From: Dehalococcoidia bacterium
GTDB lineage: Bacteria; Chloroflexota; Dehalococcoidia; Lucifugimonadales; UBA3495
NCBI GenBank assembly: GCA_965203985.1
Contig: CBDBDS010000012.1
Location: 211,907-275,906, forward strand
Length of the DNA: 64,000 nucleotides
Reading direction: 5' to 3'
Every line of letters starts with the position of its first letter. The first letter of the stretch is position 1. Positions 1,571-20,144 of the stretch are shown here, piece by piece. The position numbers were made by a program, and so were the translations under genes. The notes under the pieces were generated by a model, which saw nothing but the letters and a program-made list of their open reading frames with translations, searched no databases and was not told where the DNA came from.

Positions 1571-2343
1571 CCGTGCATTCCGTGTGGCTGCTCCGCGGCT
1601 TGCTCGTCATCGCCTTTTGGGCGATCGTCGCGTGCGCTACTGACCCACCGATTCCTGAGCCGACCGTGCCCGTGACCTCAACCGGCGCCCCTTCATCCAT
1701 TGTCACATCTACCGAGACCGTCCGGCCCACGCCCGCCGTCACCATCCCACCAACCCTCGGGGTCACTGTGGCTACGCAGGCGCCGACGGCGACCCCTATC
1801 CCCACGCCACGCCTGCCGACACCCGAGTCCCAGCCAAGCCCTGCTGCGCTCGAGACTTCGGCACCAATGCCGTTTTTGATCCGCTTGCGGGATAACCTCG
1901 ACGATCCGCTGGGCTACTGTATCGATGTCCGTGGGTTCGGCGCCGGGATCCGGCTGGACGCCGACTTGCAGGCCCACAGTTGCAAGTCCAACTCTCCCGA
2001 CGATCAGTCCTTCGCCATGATGGATGACCGGGCGGTTGGAACCATCGTGCTCGTCGATTACGATGTCTGTCTTACCGCCGCTGATCCGAAACCAGGCGCA
2101 TCCATTCTGCTGCGTCCGTGCGACGACCGCTCGGTTTCCCAGGGTTTCGAATTGCTTGCTGATGGCCGTCTGCGCCTTCAGGTGGAGTCCGGTGTTTCGC
2201 AACCGGAGTTGTGCATTGGCATTGCCGACGGCGCCGGCGAACCGGCTGGAGGCCGCAATCATTTGCGTCGGGACCTCATGCTGCTGGAATGCGACGAGGC
2301 CGATCCCATCTTGATCGCATGGGAAGCGACCCCAACAAAATAG
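1567..2343 (+). CDS. Predicted lipoprotein with a Pro/Thr-rich linker and a Cys-containing beta-trefoil (ricin-type lectin)-like C-terminal domain
   Basis: Hydrophobic signal peptide ending in a lipobox-like AIVAC, then a PT-rich linker. The C-terminal region has paired Cys and Q-x-F/W-like repeats. ATGA overlap with the upstream stop. Confidence 0.55.
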   Translation: MTVHSVWLLRGLLVIAFWAIVACATDPPIPEPTVPVTSTGAPSSIVTSTETVRPTPAVTIPPTLGVTVATQAPTATPIPTPRLPTPESQPSPAALETSAPMPFLIRLRDNLDDPLGYCIDVRGFGAGIRLDADLQAHSCKSNSPDDQSFAMMDDRAVGTIVLVDYDVCLTAADPKPGASILLRPCDDRSVSQGFELLADGRLRLQVESGVSQPELCIGIADGAGEPAGGRNHLRRDLMLLECDEADPILIAWEATPTK

Positions 2344-2365
2344 GGGCGAATGTTCATTCGCCCCT
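2342..2365. terminator. Bidirectional terminator-like hairpin between convergent genes
   Basis: Inverted repeat AGGGGCGAATG / CATTCGCCCCT lies between the + strand stop at 2343 and the - strand rplT stop at 2395. Nearly the same stem recurs at 40731-40758. Confidence 0.5.
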
Positions 2366-2394
2366 CGCTCGTCGTGGAAATGACTCGGAGTCGA

Positions 2395-2760
2395 CTATGC
2401 GGTGGCCGCCGTCGCTCCCTTGGCCACTTCGATAAGCCGCTCGAAGGCATCCGGATCCCGCACCGCCATATCCGCCAGCATCTTGCGGTCGATCTCTATG
2501 CCGGCGACATTCAACCCGTGCATGAACTGGCTGTAGGTCATGCCGTGCTGGCGGGTCGCCGCACCGATGCGGATGATCCACAAGCGCCGGAAATCGCCCT
2601 TGCGCTGCCGACGATGCCGGTACGCGTGGCTCCACGCGTGCATCACCGCCTCTTTCGCCCACTTGTAGTTGCGCCCCGAGGACGCCTGGTACCCCTTGGC
2701 GGCTTTGATGATTTTCTTGTGACGGGCGCGCTTGGTCACGCCCCTTTTGACTCTTGGCAC
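2395..2760 (-). CDS. rplT: 50S ribosomal protein L20
   Basis: [24 protein letters not shown]...[11 protein letters not shown] is a canonical L20 sequence. It is the last gene of the infC-rpmI-rplT order. Confidence 0.95.
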
Positions 2761-4356: not shown

Positions 4357-5840
4357 GCGTTAACCTCTTCATTCCAGTCCAGCATTATGATCTTTACGGC
4401 TTGCCCGGCGTTCTTGCGTGGCAGGTCAGCCGGGCAAATCGCCAGGCCGTTGGCCTTTGACAGCGATGTCAGGATGTTCGAGCCCTGCGGCCCGGTCGGC
4501 GTGGCGTACCATGTCCTATCCCGCCTCTCGACCTCGACCCGCGCGTACACCCGCCGGCCGTCGTTGTTGAAAATGGGCCCGGTGAGCACGCCCTCAACCG
4601 CCGGCCGCTCCAACAGGTCCCGCCCCAACATGCGGCGCACCGCCGCCCGACCGAACATTTCGAACGCCAGCAGCGCGCTCACGGGGTTCCCGGGCAAGCC
4701 CAACAACGGTAGCGGTCCTCGACCGTCCCGCCGGATCAACCCGAACGCCAGCGGTTTGGCCGGCCGCATCCGCACCGACCAGAAGTTCATGTCCCCTCGC
4801 TGCTCCAGCACGTCCTTCACCATGTCGTAGTCGCCCTTGGACACGCCGGCCGACGTAACCAGCAGGTCAGCGTCCGAGGCGGCGTCGATGCAACGGTGCA
4901 GGTCGTCCAGGTTGTCCCGCGCGATCCCAATCATCTTAGTTTCGCCACCCGCCGCGTGGACGGCCGCGGCCACGCTGCTGCTGTTGCTGTCGTAGATGTG
5001 ACCCGGGGCCAGATCTTCGCCCACCGTGGTCAGCTCGTCCCCGGTGGAAAGCACCGCTACCAACGGTCGCCGGATCACCTTCACCGTGACCAGTCCCAGC
5101 GATGCAAGCACTCCGGCCTCCGCGGGTCGAATCACCGTGCCCGCGGCCAACACCAACTCCCCGGCCCGCACGTCCTCGCCAGCCGGTCTGACGTTGCTGC
5201 CCAGCGGCAGGGCCTTGCGGATTTCGATCTCATCCAGCGGCGTGCCGGCTCGCCGGCGGTCCAGTTCGTCCGTCTCCTCGAAGGGAACCACGGTGTCCGC
5301 GCCGTCGGGCACGGGCGCCCCGGTCATGATCCGGATCGCCGTACCCCTGGTGACGGTTTGGTCCGAAACCTGCCCGGCCGCCACCGCGGAAATCACTGAC
5401 AGCTTCGGCGCTGCATCGTTGGCGCCTGCGATGTCAGCGTGCAGCACGGCGTAGCCGTCCATGGCCGAGTTGGCCAGCGGCGGCAGGTTCAACGGCGAGC
5501 TGACGTCCTCCGCCAGCGCCAGCCCCAGACACTCCAGTACCGGCAGTTCCACCGCGTCCAGCGGGCCGAAGTGGGCAAGGATGCGCTCGAACGCCTGCTC
5601 CACTTCCAGCATGTCCTCGTGCCCGTGGCCGTCGTCGCGGCCGCGATGGTGTCCGCCGTGCTCATGTTCCCCGTGGCGTTGGTCGCGATGCCCATGGTCA
5701 TGGATACTTTCGTGGTCCCCGTCGCCGTGGGCGTCGTGGGCATGCAGGTGTCGGGAGTGCTGATGTGTGGTCATAAGGCTGTCGTCCATTGCAGCGGGAT
5801 GTGGCGCGCTCAAGTATCGTAACATAGCGTCGCGTTGCAA
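4353..5840 (-). CDS. moeA: Molybdopterin molybdenumtransferase MoeA with a His-rich N-terminal extension (start uncertain)
   Basis: MoeA core motifs are present (SPLNLPPLANSAMDGYAV, GAPVPDGADTVV, GLPGNPVSA). The N-terminal ~75 aa are rich in H/D/G (HLHAHDAHGDGDHESIHDHGHRDQRHGEHEHGGHH). Confidence 0.85.
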   Translation of the reverse strand: MQRDAMLRYLSAPHPAAMDDSLMTTHQHSRHLHAHDAHGDGDHESIHDHGHRDQRHGEHEHGGHHRGRDDGHGHEDMLEVEQAFERILAHFGPLDAVELPVLECLGLALAEDVSSPLNLPPLANSAMDGYAVLHADIAGANDAAPKLSVISAVAAGQVSDQTVTRGTAIRIMTGAPVPDGADTVVPFEETDELDRRRAGTPLDEIEIRKALPLGSNVRPAGEDVRAGELVLAAGTVIRPAEAGVLASLGLVTVKVIRRPLVAVLSTGDELTTVGEDLAPGHIYDSNSSSVAAAVHAAGGETKMIGIARDNLDDLHRCIDAASDADLLVTSAGVSKGDYDMVKDVLEQRGDMNFWSVRMRPAKPLAFGLIRRDGRGPLPLLGLPGNPVSALLAFEMFGRAAVRRMLGRDLLERPAVEGVLTGPIFNNDGRRVYARVEVERRDRTWYATPTGPQGSNILTSLSKANGLAICPADLPRKNAGQAVKIIMLDWNEEVNA

Positions 5841-5845
5841 GCCGG

Positions 5846-6154
5846 CTAGTTGGTTTCGATGCGCAGTATGGATTCCAGATATACGGCACGGTCGTCCTCA
5901 ACGACGGAGTACCACATTTCAATTACTGGAGGGCCAATGAGGCGAGGAAACGCAATTGAGTATAAATTGACCGGTGTGTCGGGCAGCTGCCGACCGGAGA
6001 CCGGACGTCTCGCCAAGCGCTGTTTGAAATGGAGCAAATCGGCGGCGTCGGTCACCGGGTTGATGTATCCAAGCTCCACGCCTCGCCTCCAGTCGGCGGC
6101 AAACTGCTCCGTTTCTATTACGTCATAAGGATTTGCGGCGTTCGACAATGGCAT
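5846..6154 (-). CDS. Candidate toxin partner of the Panacea-domain protein (RelE/ParE-like by C-terminal pattern)
   Basis: A 102-aa ORF overlaps the upstream DUF4065 gene by 32 nt. Its C-terminus (...VIEMWYSVVEDDRAVYLESI) resembles the RelE/ParE beta-strand signature. Similarity is weak. Confidence 0.45.
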   Translation of the reverse strand: MPLSNAANPYDVIETEQFAADWRRGVELGYINPVTDAADLLHFKQRLARRPVSGRQLPDTPVNLYSIAFPRLIGPPVIEMWYSVVEDDRAVYLESILRIETN

Positions 6155-6689
6155 CGGCTATTTTTCGGCCTCGTCTGATAGCGCTGGCGCTGAGGGGAGG
6201 AGCGATCATTCCGGCAGTTTCGTAAGATATTGGTTCGCCGTCTTCAGTGTCTCGCCAACTCAATTCCTGGTGCGAATGCTCCGAAATGCCGGCAGTATTG
6301 AACAAGGCGAACCGCTTCCGTTGTTCATCCAGGATGGCGCATTCCTCGGCAGTCAGCACCTCCGGTTTCACCGTTCGATTGGGCAGCATACGATAACGGT
6401 GGAAGCCGTCGTCACAATCCTCGTACACCACTTCCACGTCCCCGGCCGCTTGCATCTCTCTCCGCACTTTGTACCAGTGCTCCGGGTACGGGCCGTGGGG
6501 GAAATGCAGGTAGGTAACGCCGGTGATAGGCGCGCCGTGTTGCAGGTAGGCGGCGCAATCGGCGTAGTACAGAAGGTGTACCAGCTTGATTACGCCAAAA
6601 TTGGGGTCGTCAGCAGAGCGCTCGCTCAGGTAGATTACGGCTTCAATCAATTTTTCCTTGTGCAGGTCGAACTCCCTTTCGGTCTCCAT
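6123..6689 (-). CDS. Panacea (SocA/DUF4065) domain protein, putative antitoxin
   Basis: KLIEAVIYLSERS...GVIKLVHLLYYADCAAYLQHGAPITGVTYLHFPHGPYPE matches the DUF4065/Panacea pattern. Confidence 0.7.
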   Translation of the reverse strand: METEREFDLHKEKLIEAVIYLSERSADDPNFGVIKLVHLLYYADCAAYLQHGAPITGVTYLHFPHGPYPEHWYKVRREMQAAGDVEVVYEDCDDGFHRYRMLPNRTVKPEVLTAEECAILDEQRKRFALFNTAGISEHSHQELSWRDTEDGEPISYETAGMIAPPLSASAIRRGRKIADAIVERRKSL

Positions 6690-6706: not shown

Positions 6707-9127
6707 CTACGCTCGCACCGTCGCCCCGGCTTCCCGTTCCAGAGCCCGCGTCAGTCCGTTCACCGCCCGGTTCACGTCTTCGGCGGTCAGGGTCCGGTCC
6801 GCGGCTCGGAACCGGATGCGGAAGGCCAGCGACCGCGTACCCTCGGGCAGACTCTCGCCGGCGTACACGTCAAAAAGCTCCGCCCGTTCCACCAGCCGCA
6901 CTCTCTCGATCAGGCCCTGCACCCGGGCCGCCGGCACGTCCGCCGGCACCACCAGCGCCAGGTCCCGGTTGGCGGCCGGGAACCGCGACAACGACTCGAA
7001 CCGGCCACCGTTCGTGCCAGCCTCCAGCAGGTCGTCCAGCCGCACCTCGAAGTAGACCACCGGGTCCGATCCCAGGTCGAACGCCTCCCTGATGTCCGGG
7101 TGCAGTTCCCCGATCAAACCCACGCCATCCGCGCTGCCCGCATTCACTACCACGCGGGCGCACCGTCCCGGATGGAACATCTCGTGGTCATGCGACTCCA
7201 GCGACACCGCGATCCCTACGCGCTCCAGCGCGGTCGCCAGTGTCCCCGATAGGTCAAAAAAGTCCAGGGACTCGCCCGCGCTCAGCCAGTTGGCGTCGTA
7301 GCGTGGCCCCGACATGACGCCCGCCACCGTCTCGCGCTCTACCGGAAGCCCCGTGCTCTGCGGGATGAAAGCCCTCCCCATCTCGAACAGCCGGAATCCG
7401 CCGTCGTTGTGCCCGCGGTTGTAGGCCAGCGTGTTCAGGATGCTGGCCGCCAGCGTGGGACGCATGATGTCCTGTTCGACGGACATCGGGTTTGCCACCC
7501 GCAGTAATTGGAGGGCGTCGTCCGCCTCGCCGCTCACGCTTAGCCGTTCCAGATCATCCATGCTGACCAGGGGGTAGCTGATCGTCTCCTGCATCCCCGC
7601 CGCCGACAGCGCGTCGCGCAGGCCGTCCTTCAGCGCCGTCATCGAGTTGGGCCGGTGGTACGGTATCGGCGACGCCAGCATGGTGGTCGGCACTTCGTCG
7701 TACCCGATGATGCGTATAACCTCCTCGATCAGGTCCTCTTCGATGGCAATGTCGCTGCGCCAGTACGGCGGGTCCGCCTCCAGGCTGTCCGGCCCCGTGC
7801 GCCGCGTCGTGATCCCCAGGCTCCCCAGCACCGTCTCTGCCCGGGCGATGTCCAGGTCCATGCCCAGCACCTGCCGCAACCTTGCCACCGTCAGCGGAAC
7901 CGCCGGCGTCTCCGTGTCCCCGCCCGGGAAAACGTCGATGATCCCTGCCGCCGCCTGTCCGCCGGCCGTCTCCAGGATCAACTGTGTGGCGCGCCGCAGC
8001 GCGATGGGCGCCAGCTCGGGCCGCAGCCCTTTCTCGAAGCGTAGGCTCGCCTCGGTTCGCAGACCAAGGTCCGTCGACGTGCGCCGGTTGTTCAGCGGGT
8101 GGAACGTCGCCGATTCCAGCAGCATGTTGGTCGTGCTTGCCGTGATCTCGCTGTTGGCCCCGCCCATGACGCCGCCGATGCCAATCGCCTGCGCCGGGTC
8201 TGCGATCAGCAGGTTGTCGGTCGAAAGCTTCCGTTTTACCCCGTCCAGGGTCGTGAACTCCTCGTCCTCTGCGGCCCGTCGCACCACTACGTGGCGGTCG
8301 GTCACCGTGTCCAGGTCAAAGGCGTGCAGCGGTTGGTTGAATTCCAGCATCACGTAGTTGGTCACGTCCACCACGTTGTTGATGGGGCGCAACCCCGCGC
8401 GGTTCAGCCGTTCCTGCAGCCACTGCGGCGAGGCCCCGATGCTGATCCCGGTGATGACCGATGCCGTGTAGCGCGGGCACAGATCCGGGTCTTCAATGGT
8501 CACCCTTGCCAGCGTCTCCACCGGCACATCCGACTCCGCGTATCCGATCTCCGGCACCCGGACCGGCTGCCCGGTGATCGCCCCGATCTCCCGGGCCACG
8601 CCCAGTATCGACAGGCAGTCGCCGCGATTCGGCGTCAGCTCCAGCTCCAGGAACGTGTCGCCCAGCGCTTCGTCCAGCGGAGTGCCGACCACCGCGTCAT
8701 CCGGCAGCACGATGATCCCTTCGTGCTCGTCGCTGATCTCCAGTTCCGCTTCCGAGCAGATCATCCCCTCCGAAACGATCCCCCGTATCGTCGCCGGCTT
8801 GAGCTCCTCCCGGCGCCCGTTGTGCATGTTCATCAGCATGACGCCGGGTCGCGCGAAGCATATTTTCTGGCCCGCCGCCACGTTCGGCGCGCCGCAGACC
8901 ACTTCCATCGGCGGCCCGTCCCCCGGATCAACCTCGCAAAGCGTCAAGGTATCGGCGTTGGGATGCGGCCGCGTCGCCCGCACGTATCCAACCACGCAGC
9001 CTTCCCAGCCGCCGCGCGTGAACACGTCGCCCACCTCGATGCCGCCCATGGTCAGCCGGTGCGCCAACTCATCGGGCACCAGCGTGATGTCAACGTACTG
9101 GGAAAGCCAGGAGAAGGGAATCAGCAT
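6707..9127 (-). CDS. pheT: Phenylalanine--tRNA ligase beta subunit
   Basis: MLIPFSWLSQYVDI... is the canonical PheT N-terminus, and B3/4, B5 and C-terminal anticodon-binding-like regions are present. The start at 9127 lies 5 nt after the upstream stop. Confidence 0.95.
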   Translation of the reverse strand: MLIPFSWLSQYVDITLVPDELAHRLTMGGIEVGDVFTRGGWEGCVVGYVRATRPHPNADTLTLCEVDPGDGPPMEVVCGAPNVAAGQKICFARPGVMLMNMHNGRREELKPATIRGIVSEGMICSEAELEISDEHEGIIVLPDDAVVGTPLDEALGDTFLELELTPNRGDCLSILGVAREIGAITGQPVRVPEIGYAESDVPVETLARVTIEDPDLCPRYTASVITGISIGASPQWLQERLNRAGLRPINNVVDVTNYVMLEFNQPLHAFDLDTVTDRHVVVRRAAEDEEFTTLDGVKRKLSTDNLLIADPAQAIGIGGVMGGANSEITASTTNMLLESATFHPLNNRRTSTDLGLRTEASLRFEKGLRPELAPIALRRATQLILETAGGQAAAGIIDVFPGGDTETPAVPLTVARLRQVLGMDLDIARAETVLGSLGITTRRTGPDSLEADPPYWRSDIAIEEDLIEEVIRIIGYDEVPTTMLASPIPYHRPNSMTALKDGLRDALSAAGMQETISYPLVSMDDLERLSVSGEADDALQLLRVANPMSVEQDIMRPTLAASILNTLAYNRGHNDGGFRLFEMGRAFIPQSTGLPVERETVAGVMSGPRYDANWLSAGESLDFFDLSGTLATALERVGIAVSLESHDHEMFHPGRCARVVVNAGSADGVGLIGELHPDIREAFDLGSDPVVYFEVRLDDLLEAGTNGGRFESLSRFPAANRDLALVVPADVPAARVQGLIERVRLVERAELFDVYAGESLPEGTRSLAFRIRFRAADRTLTAEDVNRAVNGLTRALEREAGATVRA

Positions 9128-12102: not shown

Positions 12103-13046
12103 GACGTCGCCTCCTGCGCTCCGACCACGCCGATGCGCTCCTCCAGCCAGGCCCGCTCCCGCGCCGGATACTCGTGGGCGTTGCCGTGGCCCGACTCCGG
12201 GAACAGCCACAACTCCCGCTCGCCGCCCAGCAGCCGGTACGCCGCGTAGCTGGTTTCCGGCGGGCATACCTCGTCCTCCAGGGCAATACCGACCACCATG
12301 GGACACAGGATGCGGGGCGCGAAGTTCACCGCGTCGAAATACCGCAACGTGCTCAGCATTTGCTCCGTCCGGTCTGGATGCGCCCGCTGGTAGCACGAAA
12401 GCTCGTCATACGGGTAACTGCGCAGCATCCGCATCGACTCCGGAAAACAGCACAGGAACGGGTAGCCCGCAACACCGGCCTTGATCTCCGGCCGCAATGC
12501 CGACGTTATCAGCGTCAGGCCGCCGCCCTGGCTGCTGCCGCAGCAGAAGATCCGCTCGGCGTCGATCTCCGGCCGCGACAGCAGGAAATCGACCCCGCGC
12601 ACGCAGTCCGCGATCACGCCCTTGTAGCTGTACGTATCCCGATGCTCCACGCCGCTGGTCAGCAGGCCGGGATACCCGGGGTTGAACTCCCCGCTGCTGG
12701 GCAACTTGCCCCTGACGGCCACCGACAGCACCGCGACGCCTTTCGCGCCCCAGTCCCGCCGCAACGCCGGCTCGGACTTGTACCCCGGCAGGTGCAGGAT
12801 CGCGGGAAACGGCCCGTCGCCCACCGCTGGCAGCGCGTACCACGCGAATATCTCCAGCCCGCCCAGGCTGCGGTACGTCGCCTGATACACCTTCACGGCG
12901 TCTGTGCTGCGCATTGGGTCCGCTTCCGCCCGCGCTTCCAGCGGCATCCCGTGCAGTTCCGCCTTGACCTCATCCCAAAAAGCATCAAAATCGTCGGGAC
13001 AGGTCACGTCCGTAACGAATGTCTCCAAGTCCTGTTGAGTAGCCAT
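12099..13046 (-). CDS. Acetylxylan esterase / cephalosporin-C deacetylase family (CE7, AXE1) alpha/beta hydrolase
   Basis: The N-terminal DFDAFW motif is present. The nucleophile elbow GSSQGG, an acidic residue (LEDEVCPP) and a His (ESGHGN) are in the expected order. Confidence 0.8.
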   Translation of the reverse strand: MATQQDLETFVTDVTCPDDFDAFWDEVKAELHGMPLEARAEADPMRSTDAVKVYQATYRSLGGLEIFAWYALPAVGDGPFPAILHLPGYKSEPALRRDWGAKGVAVLSVAVRGKLPSSGEFNPGYPGLLTSGVEHRDTYSYKGVIADCVRGVDFLLSRPEIDAERIFCCGSSQGGGLTLITSALRPEIKAGVAGYPFLCCFPESMRMLRSYPYDELSCYQRAHPDRTEQMLSTLRYFDAVNFAPRILCPMVVGIALEDEVCPPETSYAAYRLLGGERELWLFPESGHGNAHEYPARERAWLEERIGVVGAQEATS

Positions 13047-13299
13047 GCCTACGCTCCTCGGTCCGGCTGGACATCCCCATTATAGCCATGTGTCAACTCG
13101 GGAGAATAATGTCGTTCGCTGTCTCATGCGTGCCCACGTTCGTAATTCGCCAGAACACGGATATACGGGATTTTATGGTTGAACAAGATTGTTAGATCTC
13201 CATCAACGAAGGGTTCCAGTCCTGATAATCCCGAAATCTTGAAAATCCTGCTTCTGACGTTCCACCGTCACAGCCGGGTGCACGTGAGGCCGTGCCCGG

Positions 13300-13365
13300 C
13301 ACCTACGAACCAGAAACCCAATCCCGTCCATGCCATTCATCCCGTCCATCCCTGCCAAACCGCAG
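13300..13365 (+). repeat. C-rich/G-poor dispersed intergenic repeat, copy A
   Basis: ACGAACCAGAAACCCAATCCCGTCCATGCCATTCATCCCGTCCATCCCTGCCAAACC shares the core ATCCCGTCCATCC...TGCCAA with copies at 19505-19543 and 22021-22106. Confidence 0.6.
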
Positions 13366-13393
13366 CCCCCCAACCGTTCGCCAGGGTGCCCGG

Positions 13394-13402
13394 TGTTATA
13401 AT
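13394..13402 (+). promoter_or_regulatory. Extended -10 promoter element (TGTTATAAT) upstream of the dehydrogenase gene
   Basis: TGnTATAAT lies about 50 nt upstream of ATG 13454. An AGGAG RBS follows. Confidence 0.35.
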
Positions 13403-13453
13403 TCGGCCACTTGCCGCCGGTAGCGCATCGGCGCGTTTCAGGAGCGAAAAGGT

Positions 13454-14359
13454 ATGAAAGCTGGGTTTATCGGGGTTGGCAACATGGGCAACCCTATGGC
13501 CGCCAACATGATCAAGGCTGGGCATCAGCTCACCGTCCACGACCTGCGTCGCGAGTCCGCCATCAACCTGCTCGAAATGGGCGCCGAGTGGTCCGACAGC
13601 CCCGCCGGCTGCGTCGCCGGCAACGATGCCGTGTTCACCTCGCTGCCGGTGCCGCGGGACGTTGAAGCTGTGGTGATGGGCGAGAACGGCATCATGTCCG
13701 CCGCCGGCTCCGGCAATGTTTACGTCGACCTGTCCACCAACTCCCCGACGGTCATCCGCCGGATCCACGACGAGTGCGCCGCCCGTGGCGTGACCGTTCT
13801 GGACGCTCCGGTCAGCGGAGGCGTGTACGGCGCGGCCGCCGGCACCCTGGCCGTCATGGTCGGCGGCGACGAGGATACCTACAACACCGTCAAGCCCATG
13901 CTCGACGCCATCGGCGCCCACGTCGTCTATTGCGGCGAGATCGGCAACGGCATGGTCACCAAGATCTGCAACAACCTGCTGTCCATGGGCATCGGCGTCC
14001 TGATGTCCGAGGCCCTGACCCTCGGCGTCAAGGCTGGCGTCTCGTTGGAAACCCTGGCCGACGTCATCGCCAACAGCAGCGGCGGCAACCGTCGGCTCAC
14101 CGAAAAGTTCCCGCGCTACCTCTTTGCGGATAACTTCGAGCCTGGCTTCGCCACCGCCCTGGCCGCCAAGGACGTCCGCCTCGCCACCGACCTCGGCCGC
14201 GAGTACGGCATCCCCATGGAACTCTCCAACCTCGTCGACCAGCGCCACGTCGAAGCCCTCTTCCGCGGCTGGGGCCCCGAAGACTCCGACGCCGTAGCCA
14301 AACTCCAGGAGGAAAAATCCGGCGTCCAGCTCCGCTTCGGTGGCGAGACGGACCGATAA
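13454..14359 (+). CDS. NAD(P)-dependent 3-hydroxyisobutyrate dehydrogenase-type (HIBADH/6PGDH-like) oxidoreductase
   Basis: N-terminal Rossmann motif GFIGVGNMGNPMA, and a family-typical core (VLDAPVSGG, GNGMVTKICNN). Confidence 0.85.
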   Translation: MKAGFIGVGNMGNPMAANMIKAGHQLTVHDLRRESAINLLEMGAEWSDSPAGCVAGNDAVFTSLPVPRDVEAVVMGENGIMSAAGSGNVYVDLSTNSPTVIRRIHDECAARGVTVLDAPVSGGVYGAAAGTLAVMVGGDEDTYNTVKPMLDAIGAHVVYCGEIGNGMVTKICNNLLSMGIGVLMSEALTLGVKAGVSLETLADVIANSSGGNRRLTEKFPRYLFADNFEPGFATALAAKDVRLATDLGREYGIPMELSNLVDQRHVEALFRGWGPEDSDAVAKLQEEKSGVQLRFGGETDR

Positions 14360-14426
14360 TGAGTTGCAAAGTAGGCCGGGTCAGTACATCGACCGCTGAG
14401 ATTGGAGCACCGACAGGAGGGTACTG

Positions 14427-14804
14427 GTGATTACCCACGGCGTGAAGTGCCGCAAACCTGAAGACCATCTGAAAGCTGCTGACCTGGCGCTTGCAAATGG
14501 CGATTACGATACCGGATCGCTTCTCCTGTATCAGTCCGTAGAGTGTGCGTTGCAGCGACTGGCTGAAGCGTCAGGAATGCGCGTTGAATCAAGGTCGGAG
14601 TTCCGGGATTTCGCCGACCGGCTGGACCGCCAGTATGGACGTGATGGTTGGCACGCGCGTAAATTGCGGTTGGCAACCGTTTTCCGTGACAACGCCGCAC
14701 ACCATTTCGCGCCTTCGAACGATATCGTGCTCAGTTGGCCATCCGTTAGAGAGTTTGCCCAAGCGTTGATGGAGTACCAACCTGAGAACCTTGCGGATGG
14801 ATAA
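14427..14804 (+). CDS. HEPN/PaREP1-like helical protein (paralogue 1)
   Basis: An all-helical 125-aa protein with the same layout as the downstream PaREP1-like genes. It contains an R-x4-H motif (FRDNAAHHF). GTG start with AGGAGG 6 nt upstream. Confidence 0.45.
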   Translation: MITHGVKCRKPEDHLKAADLALANGDYDTGSLLLYQSVECALQRLAEASGMRVESRSEFRDFADRLDRQYGRDGWHARKLRLATVFRDNAAHHFAPSNDIVLSWPSVREFAQALMEYQPENLADG

Positions 14805-15171
14805 GATCGACCATTTGGCGGTGGCGGATCGCCTTAATCAATTGGCTGCAAGACTGCGGGCAGATGGCGATGACATCGCCATGGCGGAAATGCTGTGGGG
14901 AACCGTGAACCGCATCACCAACGCTTTAGCCCTTCAGCACGAGCTGGCCTATGGGAATAGCTACCCGCGGGGTGGCCGCGTCATCAGCCATCTTGTCACT
15001 CATCATTGCAACGACGCGGAGCTACAGGACAATTGGCTGTCAGCCAGTGCTTTGCACGGCCACTTTTACACCAGTCACCTTGAGCCTGCGAATTTGGCTG
15101 GGCACGTGCAAGATACGCAAAACCTGATCGACGAACTCCTGAAATTGTGCGATGCTTCTATTGACGAGTGA
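14797..15171 (+). CDS. HEPN/PaREP1-like helical protein (paralogue 2)
   Basis: Helical protein ending its third helix with ...ASALHGHFYTSHL (compare LHxNFY). ATG 14797 overlaps the upstream stop (ATGGATAA). Confidence 0.45.
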   Translation: MDKIDHLAVADRLNQLAARLRADGDDIAMAEMLWGTVNRITNALALQHELAYGNSYPRGGRVISHLVTHHCNDAELQDNWLSASALHGHFYTSHLEPANLAGHVQDTQNLIDELLKLCDASIDE

Positions 15172-15371
15172 ATAATGGACTCGCCAACGCCCCCCGGTGT
15201 GTCCGGATACGACGACGTAAAAGTCAGCGTCTCCATGCACTGCCTTAGTAACACCGTTGCTCAAGCAAGCGCCAGGCCAATATAGAAGTGTGCCGCCCTC
15301 CCAACAAAAAACGTCACTAACTGCCTTCTAAACCGATGGTCACGAGTGCGTAACAGTCCAGTCTCAATGGA

Positions 15372-15764
15372 ATGTCCCACTTCGCTCCATCATTCCAGAA
15401 ACCTCATGTCCACCGAGGCCACACGTTGTTCCGTTCGGCCTACCCCGCCAAAGACCGGCCCGCGTACATCACCCGCTACGTGTACGCCGACACCACGTTG
15501 TCCACCCACGGCGGGACTGCGGGCAAGGTCAGCGTCACCAGCGAGGAGCACACCCGCCTCCAGCAGATGGCCGAGTACCTCGAACGCTGCTGCAACGACC
15601 TTGACGCCGCCGGCTACGACGTCATCTCCATCACCCCCGTCATCAGCGGCCGCACCGCCTACACCCACACCGAGACCACCGACATCTACCCCGGCCACGG
15701 CTACAGCGTCACCGACGGCCTGGTCGTTACCGGCCGCCTCAAGTCCCTGGAGCCCAACCCATGA
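15372..15764 (+). CDS. Hypothetical small protein (start uncertain)
   Basis: Strong C/G third-position bias. The stop overlaps the ATG of the next gene (CCATGA). No family recognised. The alternative-frame 204-aa ORF looks like a low-complexity artefact. Confidence 0.55.
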   Translation: MSHFAPSFQKPHVHRGHTLFRSAYPAKDRPAYITRYVYADTTLSTHGGTAGKVSVTSEEHTRLQQMAEYLERCCNDLDAAGYDVISITPVISGRTAYTHTETTDIYPGHGYSVTDGLVVTGRLKSLEPNP

Positions 15765-16189
15765 CCCAATCCTCTCCCATCGAACCCTTCGACGAGCCGG
15801 CCGCAGCCATCGCCGACTATCGTCAGCAGGCCCGCGAGTTCCTGGCAAAAAGCCGTCAGTACCTGGCCGACGACGACCTGCACCAGGCATCCGAAAAAGG
15901 CTGGGGCGCCGCCGCGTGGATGGCCAAAGCCGTCGCCGATGCACAGGGCTGGGAATATAAAAGGCACGCCCAGTTCAACGTCGTAATGTATAGCGCCCAG
16001 GACTTCGCCGGCGATGCCAGATTAGACGGCCTCCGCGCTTTGGCCAGTGAACTGCACGGCTACTTGTACACCCGCAAGCTTCTTCTGCGCTCCGACGTGA
16101 TCAGTCGCGGGCTGGACCAGATGGGCGTCCTGTTGGACATCCTCGAACCCCTCACCGAAACCGACCGACACGCTGAAGGCGACCCATGA
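15761..16189 (+). CDS. PaREP1-family (HEPN superfamily) protein, tandem copy 1
   Basis: AREFLAKSRQYLADDDLHQASEKGWGAAAWMAKAVA...ELHGYLY matches my recollection of the archaeal PaREP1 signature (QASEKxWGAAA ... LHxNFY). Confidence 0.65.
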   Translation: MTQSSPIEPFDEPAAAIADYRQQAREFLAKSRQYLADDDLHQASEKGWGAAAWMAKAVADAQGWEYKRHAQFNVVMYSAQDFAGDARLDGLRALASELHGYLYTRKLLLRSDVISRGLDQMGVLLDILEPLTETDRHAEGDP

Positions 16190-16599
16190 CCCAATCCTCT
16201 CCCATCGAACCCTTCGACGTGCCGGCCACAGCCATCGCCGACTACCGTCAGCAGGCCCGCGAGTTCCTGGCAAAAAGCCGCCAGTACCTCGCCGAGGATG
16301 ACCTGCACCAGGCATCCGAAAAAGGCTGGGGCGCCGCCGCCTGGATGGCCAAGGCGGCTGCCGAGGCACAAGGTTGGCAGTACAAGAAGCACGATCAATT
16401 CAATGTAGTGCTGAACAATGCCCGTCTTTTGACTGGAGATGGACGACTGCCCGGGCTGCGTGGCATCGCCAACGACCTGCACACAAACTTTTACAAACGC
16501 AGGCTATTGCTGAACGCCGACGCCATTGCTGTAGACTTGGACCACATCTCTACCCTCCTCGACATCCTCGAACCCCTCACCGAAACCAGCACAACCTAG
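16186..16599 (+). CDS. PaREP1-family (HEPN superfamily) protein, tandem copy 2
   Basis: It has the same signature, including LHTNFY. The first ~150 nt and the last ~40 nt are nearly identical to copy 1 at nucleotide level, and the middle is diverged. Confidence 0.65.
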   Translation: MTQSSPIEPFDVPATAIADYRQQAREFLAKSRQYLAEDDLHQASEKGWGAAAWMAKAAAEAQGWQYKKHDQFNVVLNNARLLTGDGRLPGLRGIANDLHTNFYKRRLLLNADAIAVDLDHISTLLDILEPLTETSTT

Positions 16600-16608
16600 G
16601 AGATCCCC

Positions 16609-17637
16609 ATGACCAGCAGCGCAGAACGTCACGTCGAAACCGCCGACACCATCGAGGCCATCGAGGAGTGCTTCCGCCTCGGCTGGACTGACGGCCTCCC
16701 CGTCATCCCACCAGCCGATTACAAGGTCCGCGAGATGCTCTCCACCGCCGGCCTCACCGGCGAGGAGGAACTGCTCAACCTCGATATGCGCAGCCGCGTC
16801 ATCACCTCCGAGAACGCCGCCGCCAACGCGGTCATGGCCGGCTGCGAGGCCGAGTACTTCCCCGTGCTAGTCACCGCCCTGCGCACCCTCGAGGAAGAGC
16901 GCAACTTCGTCAACATGGCCGCTTCGTCCACCAGTTCGCCCAGTATCCTGATGGTGCTCAACGGCCCCATCCGCGAGCAGCTCGGCATCAACAGTCGTGA
17001 CGGCCTCTTCGGCCCCGGCTTCCGCGCCAACGCCAGCATCGGCCGCGCCGTCCGCCTCTGCTTCATGAACGGCTTCGACGCCTGGCCCGGCCAGCTCGAC
17101 CGCGGAACCCTGGGCACTCCGGCCAAGTACACCTTCTGCGTCGCCGAAAACGAGGAAACCTCCCCCTGGGAGCCGCTCCACGTCAGCCGCGGCTTCGACG
17201 CCTCCGACAGCGTGGTCACCGTCGCCGTCGCCTACAACCCGGTCAGCGTGCCGAACAGCTACGCCCACACCGGCCAGGCCATCCTCCTCTCCATCTGCGA
17301 CGCCCTCCGCTCCGCCGCCCTGGCCCATCGCTACCCCGCCCAGTGGGTCATCGTCATCGGACCCGAACACGCCCTGACCCTCCAGGGCGACGGCTGGACC
17401 CGCCGCGACATCCAGGACTTCCTCATTGAGAACAGCGGCCGCTCCCGTGCCGAACTCGTCCGCCTCGGTTCCAAGCAGGGCCCGGAACAACCCGGCGACG
17501 AAGAACTCATCATGCGCTGCGCCATCGACCCGAACGACATCCTCATCATGCACGGCGGCGGCACCGGCGGCCGCTACAGCGCCATCATCGACACCACCGG
17601 CTACCGCATCCGCACGCGCAAGATCGGCGGGGATTAG
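16609..17637 (+). CDS. Conserved hypothetical protein (342 aa), first gene of the selenoprotein-containing string
   Basis: AGGAG RBS and good coding bias. Motifs GWTDGLPVIPP and AANAVMAGCEAEYFPV. I cannot assign a family. Confidence 0.7.
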   Translation: MTSSAERHVETADTIEAIEECFRLGWTDGLPVIPPADYKVREMLSTAGLTGEEELLNLDMRSRVITSENAAANAVMAGCEAEYFPVLVTALRTLEEERNFVNMAASSTSSPSILMVLNGPIREQLGINSRDGLFGPGFRANASIGRAVRLCFMNGFDAWPGQLDRGTLGTPAKYTFCVAENEETSPWEPLHVSRGFDASDSVVTVAVAYNPVSVPNSYAHTGQAILLSICDALRSAALAHRYPAQWVIVIGPEHALTLQGDGWTRRDIQDFLIENSGRSRAELVRLGSKQGPEQPGDEELIMRCAIDPNDILIMHGGGTGGRYSAIIDTTGYRIRTRKIGGD

Positions 17638-17638
17638 C

Positions 17639-18460
17639 ATGACGACATCAGCCTTTCCAACAAGCCCGTTTCCAGGAATGAATCCTTACCTGGAAGACCC
17701 TGATCTTTGGCCGGGCATACACAAGACCTTTATCGCCGGTTTGCAGCGGCTCCTCAGTCCCCAATTGCGCCCCGATTACATGGTCCGGATTGAGGAACGG
17801 GTGTATGTATCCGACGAACCCAACGTCAGCGGGCAACGGCCCTTCCGCATACCCGACGTTATGATTGTGGACGAGGGTGGCGCCGCCGCCCGCGCCACCG
17901 CAATAGAGACGGAACCCCAACAAAACGAGGACGCCATCAACGTGGCGCTCCCTTCAGTTGAGCTGGAAAAAGACCGTTACCTGAAAATCATCAAGGTCAG
18001 CAATCGTGAGGTCGTTGCTGTAATCGAGCTGCTGTCGCCCTCCAATAAGACTGGCGATGGCCGCCAGGAATATCTGTCCAAGCGTGCCGAAGTGCAGTAC
18101 AGCCTTTCTCATTTGGTGGAAATCGACCTGCTGCGCTCCGGATCGCCCATGCCAGTCGTTGGAGACGTCCCCGGTGGCGACTACCGAATCCTGATTAGCA
18201 ATGCCCGGCTTGCGCCCGATGCGTCGCTGTACGTCTTTAGCATGCGCCAGCCGATACCCATCTTCGTCATGCCCCTGGCAGAAGGCTCCGAAGGCATAGC
18301 AATAGACCTGAAACCCGTCATCGACGAGGTGTACGTCCTCGGTTCCTACGACCGGGACATCGACTACTACCAGGACCCGGAACCGCCCCTCTCCGACCCC
18401 GACCGCGCCTGGATCGACCAACTCCTTCGCAATCAGGGGTTACGCAAACCGGCCCTTTGA
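17639..18460 (+). CDS. DUF4058 family protein (restriction-endonuclease-like fold)
   Basis: The N-terminus SPFPGMNPYLEDPDLWPGIHKTFI is the typical DUF4058 start. The ATG lies 1 nt after the upstream stop. Confidence 0.7.
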   Translation: MTTSAFPTSPFPGMNPYLEDPDLWPGIHKTFIAGLQRLLSPQLRPDYMVRIEERVYVSDEPNVSGQRPFRIPDVMIVDEGGAAARATAIETEPQQNEDAINVALPSVELEKDRYLKIIKVSNREVVAVIELLSPSNKTGDGRQEYLSKRAEVQYSLSHLVEIDLLRSGSPMPVVGDVPGGDYRILISNARLAPDASLYVFSMRQPIPIFVMPLAEGSEGIAIDLKPVIDEVYVLGSYDRDIDYYQDPEPPLSDPDRAWIDQLLRNQGLRKPAL

Positions 18461-18520
18461 CGGTACAATCCGCGCATATCGTTCATTCCGACCACACGCC
18501 CAAATCAACGGAGGTATCGC

Positions 18521-19081
18521 ATGACCACCGCCGAATCGAGCCGCCTCCGGCTCGTCAACCCCAAGGGCACCGAACTGCCCCAGACTGAGTTTCGCATGAA
18601 CGACCGCTCCGGCGGCTTGGCCGGCAAGCGCCTGGGCCTCATGGAGAACTCCAAGGCCAATGCCGACAAGCTCCTGATCGAGCTCGGCAATATCCTCAAC
18701 GAGCGCCACGGCTTCTCCGAGATCAAGTTCTACGACAAGGGCCACGCCAGCCTGCCCGCCAAGCAGGAAATGATCGACGAGATCTTGAGTGAGGTCGATT
18801 ACCTCATCACCGGGGTCGGAGATTGAGGGTCCTGCAGCTCGTGCAGTGTGCACGACGGAATCGACATGGAAAAGCGCGGCGTCCCCACCGCTGCCATCAT
18901 CACTCACGTCTTCCTCAACACGGCGCAGGCCATGACCCGCATGATGGGCGTGCCCGACTACCGCTACGTTGTCGCCCAGCATCCCCTGTCCAGCCTCACC
19001 GATGACGAGGTCAAGCAGCGTGCCGCCGACTTGGCCGACGAGGTGGAGTCCATCCTGACCGGCCAGCCTGTCGCCGCCTAG
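18521..19081 (+). CDS. UGSC-family / GrdB-C-terminal-like selenoprotein (predicted Sec at TGA 18824-18826)
   Basis: ORFs 18521-18826 and 18848-19081 share a frame and are separated only by one TGA. Read-through gives ...DYLITGVGD-U-GSCSSCSVHDGIDMEKRGVPTAAII... (UxxCxxC). Only the first ORF has an RBS (GGAGG). Confidence 0.75.
18839..18855 (+). promoter_or_regulatory. SECIS-like hairpin downstream of TGA 18824
   Basis: TCGTGCA-GTG-TGCACGA forms a 7-bp stem with a G-containing apical loop about 20 nt after the UGA. An alternative hairpin is CTGCA-GCTCG-TGCAG at 18832-18846. Confidence 0.45.
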
Positions 19082-19104
19082 CAACCCGCGCGTCGGAGTC
19101 GCCC

Positions 19105-19491
19105 GTGGCGTCTCCCGGCACGTCGCAACCGTCTCGCCTGCCCATCGACCCGGCCATCCGGCCCGGTCTGGCAGGCGAAACTCATTTGACCGTCGCCGCC
19201 GAACACCTCGCCCCGCATACGCCCAAGTTCAGCACCCCGGCCATGGTCATGCTCATGGAGCAGGCGTCGTACCAGGCGGTCCTGTCCCTGCTCCACCCTG
19301 CCCAGACCGTTGTCGGCTACGAGGTCAACGTCAAGCACCTCGCCCCGGCTGACGAGGGTTCAATCGTCACCGCCCGTTCCATCCTTACCGACGTGTCCGG
19401 CAACAAGCTCCGCTTCGAAGTCGAAGCCCACCACGGCGACGTCCTCCTCGGCACTGCTGAACATAAAATGGCCATAGTGCCAACCCAGTGA
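19105..19491 (+). CDS. Hotdog-fold thioesterase (FlK-like/4HBT-like)
   Basis: ...THLTVAAEHLAP...FSTPAMVMLMEQASYQAV...VGYEVNVKHLAPADEG fits the hotdog thioesterase pattern. GTG start with GGAG 6 nt upstream. Confidence 0.7.
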   Translation: MASPGTSQPSRLPIDPAIRPGLAGETHLTVAAEHLAPHTPKFSTPAMVMLMEQASYQAVLSLLHPAQTVVGYEVNVKHLAPADEGSIVTARSILTDVSGNKLRFEVEAHHGDVLLGTAEHKMAIVPTQ

Positions 19492-19504
19492 CCGTCTTAA
19501 TACC

Positions 19505-19577: not shown

Positions 19578-20144
19578 ATGTCCTGGATCCGAGAAACCGA
19601 CGTCGCCGTCCCCTCGGTGATCAGTTGCATGTCCATCAACCCCGACCTCATGGCGGCGGTCCAGAACCTTAACGCCAAGGCGACCTTCGGCTCGTCCGCC
19701 CTAACCCGCACCCAGGAGGAAGCAATCGCCACCGTGGTCTCCCTGGTCAACCGCTGCCGGTATTGAGCCGTCGCCCACGGAGGGTTCCTCCGTCAACACT
19801 CCGGCGACCCCGAGTACTCCAGCCACATCATCCACGACTACACCCTGGCAGACCTGGACCCGCAGACTCGCGCCATCCTCGATTACGCCGTCAAGCTCAC
19901 CCTGACCCCGGCAGCGATGACCGAAGCCGACATTAGTACCCTCCGCACTGTTGGCCTCACCGACGAGCAAATCCTGTCCACTGTCGCCATCACCTGCGTC
20001 TTCAACTTCATGAACCGCTTAGCCGATGGCCTCGGCGTCGAAATCCCCGAAGGCCGCGAGGCCATCATGGGCCAGTGGCTCTCCGACGCTGCCAAGCAAG
20101 CCCAGGACTGGCTCCTGTCCCCGGACGCCGTTGCCGTCTCCTGA
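19578..20144 (+). CDS. AhpD-like / carboxymuconolactone decarboxylase-family selenoprotein (predicted Sec at TGA 19764-19766)
   Basis: ORFs 19578-19766 and 19917-20144 share a frame, and the 150 nt between them are stop-free with coding bias. Read-through gives ...VSLVNRC-R-Y-U-AVAHGGFL..., which is the family motif N-x-C-x-Y-C-x-x-x-H with the second Cys replaced by the TGA codon. AGGAGG RBS at 19578 only. Confidence 0.8.
19770..19808 (+). promoter_or_regulatory. SECIS-like two-tier hairpin downstream of TGA 19764
   Basis: The outer stem is GTCGCC/GGCGAC (19770-75 / 19803-08). The inner stem is ACGGAGG-GTT-CCTCCGT (19777-19793). The apical loop G lies about 18 nt after the UGA. Confidence 0.55.

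Follow-up and report, generated by a model that had tools for sequence, protein, structure and literature searches.

Positions 14,427 to 16,599 of a 64,000-nt stretch of contig CBDBDS010000012.1 from a Dehalococcoidia bacterium (the whole stretch is hereinafter referred to as the window) contain five co-oriented open reading frames (ORFs), P1–P5, which were found in the ORF list of the window where the initial annotation had placed them. The array formed by these ORFs is probably an accessory islet of HEPN-fold genes built in two layers, which is located in the spacer of an operon, has been shaped by recombination, and most likely has an RNA-directed role in stress or conflict. Its older layer comprises P3 and one to three PaREP1-type genes, with the P5 copy fixed beside a gene encoding a 342-aa protein, whereas the younger layer is a low-GC insertion of about 1.05 kb carrying P1 (a mini-HEPN with the motif RDNAAH) and P2. 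The array had been described as four paralogues; instead, it consists of three PaREP1 genes and one unrelated mini-HEPN gene, which arrived in two separate events, together with P3. PaREP1 is a HEPN clade without known function that has been described as archaeal, and the locus reveals a large bacterial branch of it.

The assignment of P1–P5 to families was performed using Pfam profiles, with cut-offs of 24.4 bits for PF05942 (PaREP1/PaREP8) and 22 bits for PF05168 (HEPN). The PF05942 scores of P5 and P4 were 37.3 and 31.4 bits, respectively, both above the cut-off, and that of P2 was slightly under it (22.1 bits). P2 aligned with the profile of bacterial PaREP1 proteins (hhalign 93.5%, E-value = 2.3 × 10−7; hmmsearch E-value = 1.9 × 10−9) and retained the E, W, and G residues as well as the LHGHFY motif, without the R residue. 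P1 had a sub-threshold match to PF05168 (18.1 bits) and no match to PF05942, the hhalign probability of its alignment with the PaREP1b profile was just 41%, and according to PADLOC it weakly matched the HEPN region of Csx1/Csm6 (E-value = 0.002–0.05).

A profile constructed from 50 diverse bacterial relatives matched the Sulfolobus PaREP1 structures (PDB 2jpu/2q00) over 104 positions (E-value = 4 × 10−7); TT1696 and TM0613, both HEPN proteins, were hit weakly, and a single-sequence search of the PDB with P5 gave nothing significant. The AlphaFold model of P5 (pLDDT 91.3, pTM 0.84) consisted of five helices. Among its top 14 Foldseek matches, 12 were HEPN domains (including 2hsb, 2q00/2jpu, 4nqf, 1wol, 3o10, 1ufb, 1o3u, and 6m6w), and the other two were the designed minibinder 9min. 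The best match was AF0298 (2hsb, TM-scores of 0.76/0.82), the TM-scores for PaREP1 2q00 were 0.69/0.77, and the further matches included ST0689, the HEPN domain of sacsin, TT1696, TM0613, and HepT. Judging by these profile and model comparisons, P4 and P5 are assigned to PaREP1 (PF05942) and P2 to a divergent branch of it, while P1 is classified as a different, canonical-looking mini-HEPN, related to the PaREP1 genes at the level of the HEPN superfamily only. Thus, the PaREP1/HEPN assignment in the initial annotation holds for P4 and P5 (Pfam, the PDB profile match, and the P5 model) and loosely for P2, and fails for P1. The same applies to the layout said to be common to the four proteins, namely, a GD/DD turn followed by SEKGWGAAA and LHxNFY, which is present in P4 and P5, is loose in P2 (AEMLWGT, LHGHFY), and is absent from P1, where neither motif was found.

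Conservation was scored on representatives of the PaREP1 relatives clustered at 50% identity (636 clusters at E-value < 1 × 10−3). The conserved core includes D39, the stretch Q42-A-S-E-K-G-W-G-A-A-A, K56-A, G63-W, H69, A95, and L98-H99-x-N101-F-Y103, with H99 present in 75% of the representatives. In the Dehalococcoidia clade to which the window genes belong, H99 and R105 hardly vary, and 68–78% of the sequences have R92. It had been noted earlier that only the first gene of the array keeps an R-x4-H motif; this is literally correct (R87-x4-H92 in P1), but an R92-x6-H99 motif in P4 and P5, within the accepted Rx4-6H range, had been overlooked, and P2 has the H without the R. The motif of P4 and P5 is a formal one and marks a putative catalytic site. 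The family as a whole combines a conserved histidine with a non-conserved arginine (Anantharaman 2013, Table 1), and the Parep1/8 ("HEPN-T") clade of HEPN has been described as lacking the R while conserving the H and as occurring in tandem repeats (PMC3710099).

The gene order at the corresponding loci of related Dehalococcoidia is pheST, two AXE1 esterase genes, an NAD_binding_2 dehydrogenase gene, P3, PaREP1, the gene of the 342-aa protein, in some cases DUF4058, a UGSC-family gene, and an FlK-type thioesterase gene. In four more distant relatives (L087, L088, L090, and L091; identity of the 342-aa protein 68–72%), the dehydrogenase gene is followed by a spacer of 62–83 nt and then directly by the 342-aa gene, and there is no PaREP1, P3, or DUF4058 between the dehydrogenase and 342-aa/UGSC genes; UGSC follows the 342-aa gene in L087 and L088 and does not in L090 and L091. 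Since the spacer in these relatives lacks P3 and PaREP1, the array is an insertion into the dehydrogenase/342-aa spacer of a conserved operon in one sub-clade of Dehalococcoidia. The junction at which the P5 stop codon TAG runs into AGGAG (TAGGAGATCCCCATG) was kept in six syntenic loci (L003, L004, L009, L013, L015, and L019). Through this overlap of its stop codon with the AGGAG in front of the 342-aa gene, the fixed copy is now part of the translation signals of the operon.

The segment carrying P1 and P2 was delimited using blastn: L009, L001, L003, and L015 lack it, and apart from the window it occurs only in L007. The GC content is 55–56% for P1 and P2 and about 55% for the whole insertion compared with 62% for the window, and the insertion is a separate recent acquisition, with which its low GC content is consistent. 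The P1–P2 pair was found in no other syntenic locus compared, and two scans for P1 and P2 relatives in JGI metagenome contigs confirmed none. It should be noted that in L009 the spacer between the dehydrogenase gene and P3 (positions 5032–5207) contains two hairpin repeats, such as CATTCCGGCGAAAGCCGGAATC, with GCGAAAGC in their loops, similar in appearance to small REP/MITE-type elements, and that in the window the P1–P2 insertion sits where L009 has these repeats.

The number of PaREP1 copies at the syntenic loci ranged from one to three, and that of P3-like copies from zero to two. Orthologues of P4 were found in L007, L009, and L001 and were absent in L003, L004, L013, L015, and L019, while L025 had a PaREP1 gene beside the 342-aa gene without P3. 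Four contigs with an identical P3 protein and flanks of 97–98% identity differed in their arrays, which had the compositions a-c (L092), a-b with a c-type 3′ tail (L093), and a-b-c (L095) or were broken by insertion sequence (IS) elements (L094). PaREP1 copies are gained and lost by unequal recombination. The supposed accessory behavior was borne out, given that the ancestral operon lacks the array and that the copy number of the array varies between genomes and between strains; an invariant and syntenic arrangement was found for the flanking operon and not for the array itself. L007, from the Dehalococcoidia metagenome-assembled genome (MAG) S8_392, was 95.6% identical to the window over the segment comprising the dehydrogenase gene, the array, and the 342-aa gene (13,338–17,714), whereas both flanks of this segment were just 87–90% identical, and the higher identity within it may reflect recent exchange between lineages or stronger constraint.

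The P4 and P5 proteins are 73% identical, and their genes form a tandem repeat with a period of 425 nt, in which positions 15,757–16,056 and 16,182–16,481 match by 81%. The nucleotide identity is 93–100% over the first ~165 nt and 50–65% in the center, and close to the 3′ end the two genes share an identical block of 27 nt (GACATCCTCGAACCCCTCACCGAAACC); a tandem duplication with near-identical ends and a diverged center, as described in the initial annotation, was thereby confirmed. The proportion of synonymous differences (pS) and the ratio of nonsynonymous to synonymous substitutions (dN/dS) were estimated by the Nei–Gojobori method for codons 1–55, codons 56–124, and the 3′ block. For P4 and P5, pS was 0.14, 0.77 (saturated), and 0.13 in these segments, respectively. 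In the same pair of paralogues from L001, pS was 0.63 in the 5′ part and 0.65 in the middle, and the value of 0.63 implies that neither protein nor nucleotide constraint accounts for the likeness of the P4 and P5 5′ parts. Independent homogenization was observed in L010 (pS = 0.03) and L018 (pS = 0.11). The maximum chi-square test placed the breakpoint between P4 and P5 at nucleotide 167 (0 of 2000 permutations); when third codon positions alone were used, it fell at codon 55 (0 of 2000), and the third positions of the L001 pair were homogeneous (1706 of 2000). Furthermore, copy b of L093 bears a type-c 3′ tail, with the switch within or after the 27-nt block. The proposal of gene conversion at the ends is therefore upheld by the pS contrast, the breakpoint test, and the tail switch. 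The 27-nt block is also almost invariant throughout L001–L019, even at synonymous sites and between otherwise saturated orthologues, and could be a second recombination point or hot spot or could be under nucleotide-level constraint.

The other suggestion, that of diversification of the middle, found no support in the comparison. Orthologues of both the P4 and P5 types occur in L007, L009, and L001, which means that the centers are old paralogous types, that is, distinct cassettes, and the dN/dS values within these types (0.03–0.24) indicate that the centers are under purifying selection. Positive diversifying selection in the P4/P5 center was rejected on the basis of the same dN/dS values, although the test is a weak one because dS between the paralogues is saturated.

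P3, which had been called an orphan, turned out to have a conserved family restricted to this locus, consisting of 54 homologue clusters with 61–97% identity and without a Pfam domain. All of the homologues examined belong to this locus, where they immediately precede the first PaREP1 gene. The orthologues begin with MFRSAYP, which corresponds to TTG at 15,426 in the window, and this is probably the start codon of P3. The alignment of the family contained 35 invariant columns. The P3 model was a ββ-α-ββ domain with no significant fold match in the PDB (best E-value = 0.97) and nothing resembling a nucleotidyltransferase. An MNT-type nucleotidyltransferase, DUF4177, and other known folds were rejected as identities of P3, with no meaningful match in Pfam, NCBIfam, or PADLOC and no PDB fold match. 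Another candidate role, that of obligatory partner of the catalytically competent PaREP1 copies, predicted R92 and R105 only in copies beside P3 and was discarded, as both sets of copies have the same residues. A distant P3 paralogue (~31% identity) is present in some genomes, likewise at this locus only. In L002 (positions 6967–7986), one ORF of 339 aa spans P3, a paralogue resembling it, and a divergent PaREP1 gene; the long-read assembly probably contains frameshifts or a fusion here, but the ORF could be a real pseudogenized array.

The scan of species-representative genomes revealed at least 537 PaREP1 loci, nearly all of them in Dehalococcoidia/Chloroflexota MAGs, often with several per genome, and a few in Ca. 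Poriferisodalis. These loci do not fit the archaeal distribution attributed to PaREP1, which bears on the description of the family and not on its sequence definition. Among the best 80 loci, about 65 are located away from the locus described here, as single genes or sometimes two to four in tandem, co-oriented with their neighbors. At least seven contexts of such copies recur across genomes, the neighbors being genes for NHL-repeat proteins, metallo-β-lactamase (MBL), Mo-hydroxylase, ComB phosphatase, acyl-CoA dehydrogenase (ACAD), enoyl-CoA hydratase (ECH), Leu/Phe/Val dehydrogenase (ELFV-DH), 3-dehydroquinate synthase (DHQ), and GH88. Within these best 80 loci, no gene family was recurrently found beside the off-locus copies, and no MNT gene was found there. 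The family has already been described in the literature, together with its HEPN affiliation and its tendency to form tandem repeats, and automatic PF05942 hits on bacterial proteins also exist; a literature search found no paper discussing the bacterial expansion of PaREP1. The novel elements are the size of the Dehalococcoidia branch, the R-x6-H/R105 motif specific to the clade, the solitary, operon-embedded lifestyle, the P3 family, the concerted evolution, and the strain-level reshuffling of cassettes.

Archaeal PaREP1/PaREP8 proteins (PF05942; PDB 2q00/2jpu, Sulfolobus solfataricus) resemble the genes of the window in the Pfam family, the helical HEPN fold, the conserved histidine before an aromatic-rich motif, the tandem repeats, and the multi-copy lineage-specific expansion. 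In contrast to that family, described as archaeal with a presence in Caenorhabditis, the host here is bacterial; the clade of the window has the formal R-x6-H motif, an invariant R105, and mostly solitary copies in metabolic operons; and there is no MNT or DUF1626 restriction endonuclease neighbor, but a dedicated upstream P3 of a new family. Canonical stand-alone HEPN proteins (PF05168: TM0613, 1o3u; TT1696, 1ufb; AF0298, 2hsb; sacsin, 3o10) share their layout and the R-x4-H motif with P1, and AF0298 is the closest structural match of the P5 model. They are usually paired with or fused to MNT, whereas P1, which remains under the Pfam cut-off, is paired with a PaREP1-type gene.

According to the reading preferred here, gene conversion keeps the first ~165 nt and the 27-nt 3′ block of the copies alike, unequal recombination adds and removes copies of distinct old cassette types, and the islet genes are part of the large PaREP1 expansion in Dehalococcoidia, represented mostly by solitary co-oriented genes in unrelated operons. 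The proteins are predicted to act as HEPN dimers, possibly as heterodimers of tandem paralogues, with a putative RNA or nucleotide site composed of R92-x6-H99, N101, Y103, and R105 together with E45, K46, K56, and H69. Their expression would occur by read-through of the host operon, and their role would most likely be an RNA-directed one in stress or conflict (Abi-like, toxin-like, or that of a regulated RNase) and not a part in the chemistry of the neighboring enzymes. The fold, the conserved H/N/Y/R cluster, and the knowledge that HEPN domains are mostly RNases deployed in conflicts (PMC3710099) point to a dimeric module that would bind RNA or a nucleotide and may be an RNase.

A number of observations weigh against this interpretation. 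The RNase or conflict role of the PaREP1 proteins is what we infer, and the solitary copies, maintained in the same position across many genomes under purifying selection, fit a housekeeping-type role equally well. Position 92 is occupied in the wider family by F in 45% and by R in just 14% of the representatives. P2–P5 matched no defense model of PADLOC-DB, the P3 model is of moderate confidence (pLDDT 72.8), and a scan for promoters and terminators over positions 13,000–19,500 gave counts equal to the shuffled expectation, so that co-transcription is deduced from spacing and orientation only. The locus does not establish a new mechanism. A more specific version, regarded as speculative and rather unlikely, is that the copies make up a cassette repertoire, in which the N-terminal half (helices 1–2, QASEKGWGAAA) would be held constant by gene conversion and the variable C-terminal half (helices 3–5, R-x6-H) would be reassorted between strains, yielding different HEPN homo- or heterodimers with different RNA targets; this would amount to a strain-variable, MNT-free system of RNA-targeting immunity or conflict, expressed from the host operon and governed at this locus by the new-fold protein P3.

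An accessory islet had to be distinguished from a classical HEPN toxin–antitoxin or defense module similar to type VII, whose HEPN RNase toxin would be restrained by its cognate partner. The HEPN fold, the canonical RDNAAH of P1, the R-x6-H of P4 and P5, the overlapping, translationally coupled pairs P1/P2 and P3/P4, and the accessory behavior of the array all agree with such a module, and in L004 an MNT+HEPN fusion gene lies beside the same locus. The type VII pair HepT–MntA (PDB 6m6w/7bxo) is likewise composed of small, translationally coupled genes behaving as accessory DNA and has a minimal HEPN of ~130 aa, to which the P5 model is similar with a TM-score of ~0.54–0.56. However, as the initial annotation had correctly stated, no MNT partner is present among the array or neighboring genes in the window: neither P1–P5 nor the neighbors matched NTP_transf_2 or Polbeta, and the P3 model is not nucleotidyltransferase-like. 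A classical HEPN–MNT toxin–antitoxin system is therefore unlikely. In addition, Rx4-6H is not strictly conserved; the many related copies found off the locus carry the same motif without a recurrent neighbor; and the positions are fixed and vertically inherited across genomes. Solitary, position-fixed, and beside unrelated metabolic genes, the off-locus copies are unlike classical toxin–antitoxin or defense islands. The possibility that P3 and PaREP1 constitute a new two-gene module, with P3 replacing MNT as antidote or regulator at this locus, is considered just as doubtful. It is consistent with the invariable position of P3, which is never seen elsewhere and immediately precedes the first PaREP1 gene, overlapping it by 4 nt or leaving a short gap, with the high conservation of P3, and with the confinement of the distant paralogue to the same locus, but one P3 accompanies one to three PaREP1 genes, L025 has PaREP1 without P3, the dispersed copies have identical R92, H99, and R105 residues in the absence of P3, and no recognizable fold or motif links P3 to antitoxins.

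Two further explanations received still less weight than these. If the PaREP1 proteins were accessories (a subunit, chaperone, or regulator) of the 342-aa/UGSC selenoprotein pathway, then the co-orientation of the genes and the 9-nt junction, with the P5 stop codon over the Shine–Dalgarno sequence of the 342-aa gene and kept in many genomes, would be expected; yet the operon is present without the array in related genomes, the numbers of clusters are disparate (more than 6414 for the 342-aa protein, 1516 for the PaREP1 relatives, and 54 for P3), and close PaREP1 paralogues adjoin at least seven unrelated enzyme families. Since the operon exists without the array and the paralogues stand beside unrelated enzymes, a dedicated role of this kind is very improbable. 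Least credible of all is the assumption of neutral or decaying selfish repeats without a cellular function, to which the multi-copy family, the insertion into a spacer, the flux in copy number, and the IS disruption in L094 might point: the copies examined at syntenic loci were all intact ORFs, dN/dS was 0.03–0.24, and many polar residues were invariant, so that purifying selection contradicts neutral decay. The accessory islet with a likely RNA-directed role thus remains the favored interpretation. The locus is a compact and tractable case, combining a canonical mini-HEPN, three PaREP1 genes, a new partner family, purifying selection on the proteins, concerted evolution of the 5′ halves, and strain-level reshuffling, and it provides defined constructs with which an RNase, toxin, or binding function of PaREP1 proteins could be probed. 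It also illustrates clearly how small accessory genes colonize the spacers of a conserved operon, even to the extent that the following gene takes its ribosome-binding site from one of them.

The coordinates of the genes and sequence elements of the array are given in Table 1.

Table 1. Features of the P1–P5 array and its boundaries in the window.
Feature	Coordinates	Strand	Description
P1	14427..14804	+	125-aa canonical-looking mini-HEPN, R87-DNAA-H92; outside PaREP1
P2	14791..15171	+	126-aa divergent PaREP1-type HEPN; 14-nt overlap with P1
P3	15426..15764 (ORF open from 15372)	+	112 aa, probable TTG start; locus-restricted family
P4	15761..16189	+	142-aa PaREP1-type HEPN; extra tandem copy
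P5	16186..16599	+	137-aa PaREP1-type HEPN; fixed copy adjoining the 342-aa gene
P1–P2 insertion	14345..15389	+	~1.05 kb, low GC, with a ~250-nt non-coding tail; boundaries from blastn
5′ gene-conversion tract, P4	15761..15927	+	pairs with 16186–16352; pS and maximum chi-square
5′ gene-conversion tract, P5	16186..16352	+	pairs with 15761–15927; pS and maximum chi-square
27-nt block GACATCCTCGAACCCCTCACCGAAACC	16136..16162 (P4), 16561–16587 (P5)	+	identical in both genes
Junction of P5 stop and Shine–Dalgarno-like sequence of the 342-aa gene	16597..16611	+	TAG overlapping AGGAG, TAGGAGATCCCCATG

The P3/P4 and P4/P5 junctions are ATGA start/stop overlaps, and a gap of 9 nt separates the P5 stop codon from the start of the 342-aa gene at 16,609. 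No further copies of P1, P2, P3, or PaREP1 were found elsewhere in the window, the direct and inverted repeats flanking the array did not exceed chance, and the ORF list of the window contained no tRNA or integrase near the array. The exact P5 sequence was not on record in the sequence look-up.

The 342-aa protein (16,609–17,637) represents a very large uncharacterized family (more than 6414 clusters at 90% identity) and had no match in Pfam, NCBIfam, PADLOC, or a PDB sequence search. It is 93–99% conserved among the syntenic genomes; its gene follows the NAD_binding_2 dehydrogenase gene in every locus seen, also where the PaREP1 array is absent, and precedes the UGSC gene in most of them (not in L090 or L091). 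The array had been said to lie 9 nt upstream of a string of selenoprotein genes. The string and the gap are both real, with an in-frame TGA at 18,824–18,826 (GVGD-U-GSC) in the UGSC-family gene (18,521–19,081) and another in the C-R-Y-U motif of an AhpD-like gene (19,578–20,144), but the gene 9 nt downstream of the array, which encodes the 342-aa protein, has no in-frame TGA.

The DUF4058 gene (17,636–18,460), between the 342-aa and UGSC genes, represents a second variable insertion: the syntenic loci have zero to three copies of it, whereas the ancestral operon has none; Uma2-family genes occur near DUF4058 in relatives. The neighborhood seems to attract HEPN-type genes repeatedly. The MNT+HEPN fusion gene of L004 (positions 5652–6545, minus strand; PF01909, PF18765, and HEPN) is located just upstream of the dehydrogenase gene, and in L087 another PaREP1 gene (positions 2206–2562, minus strand) lies ~2.5 kb upstream of the dehydrogenase gene.

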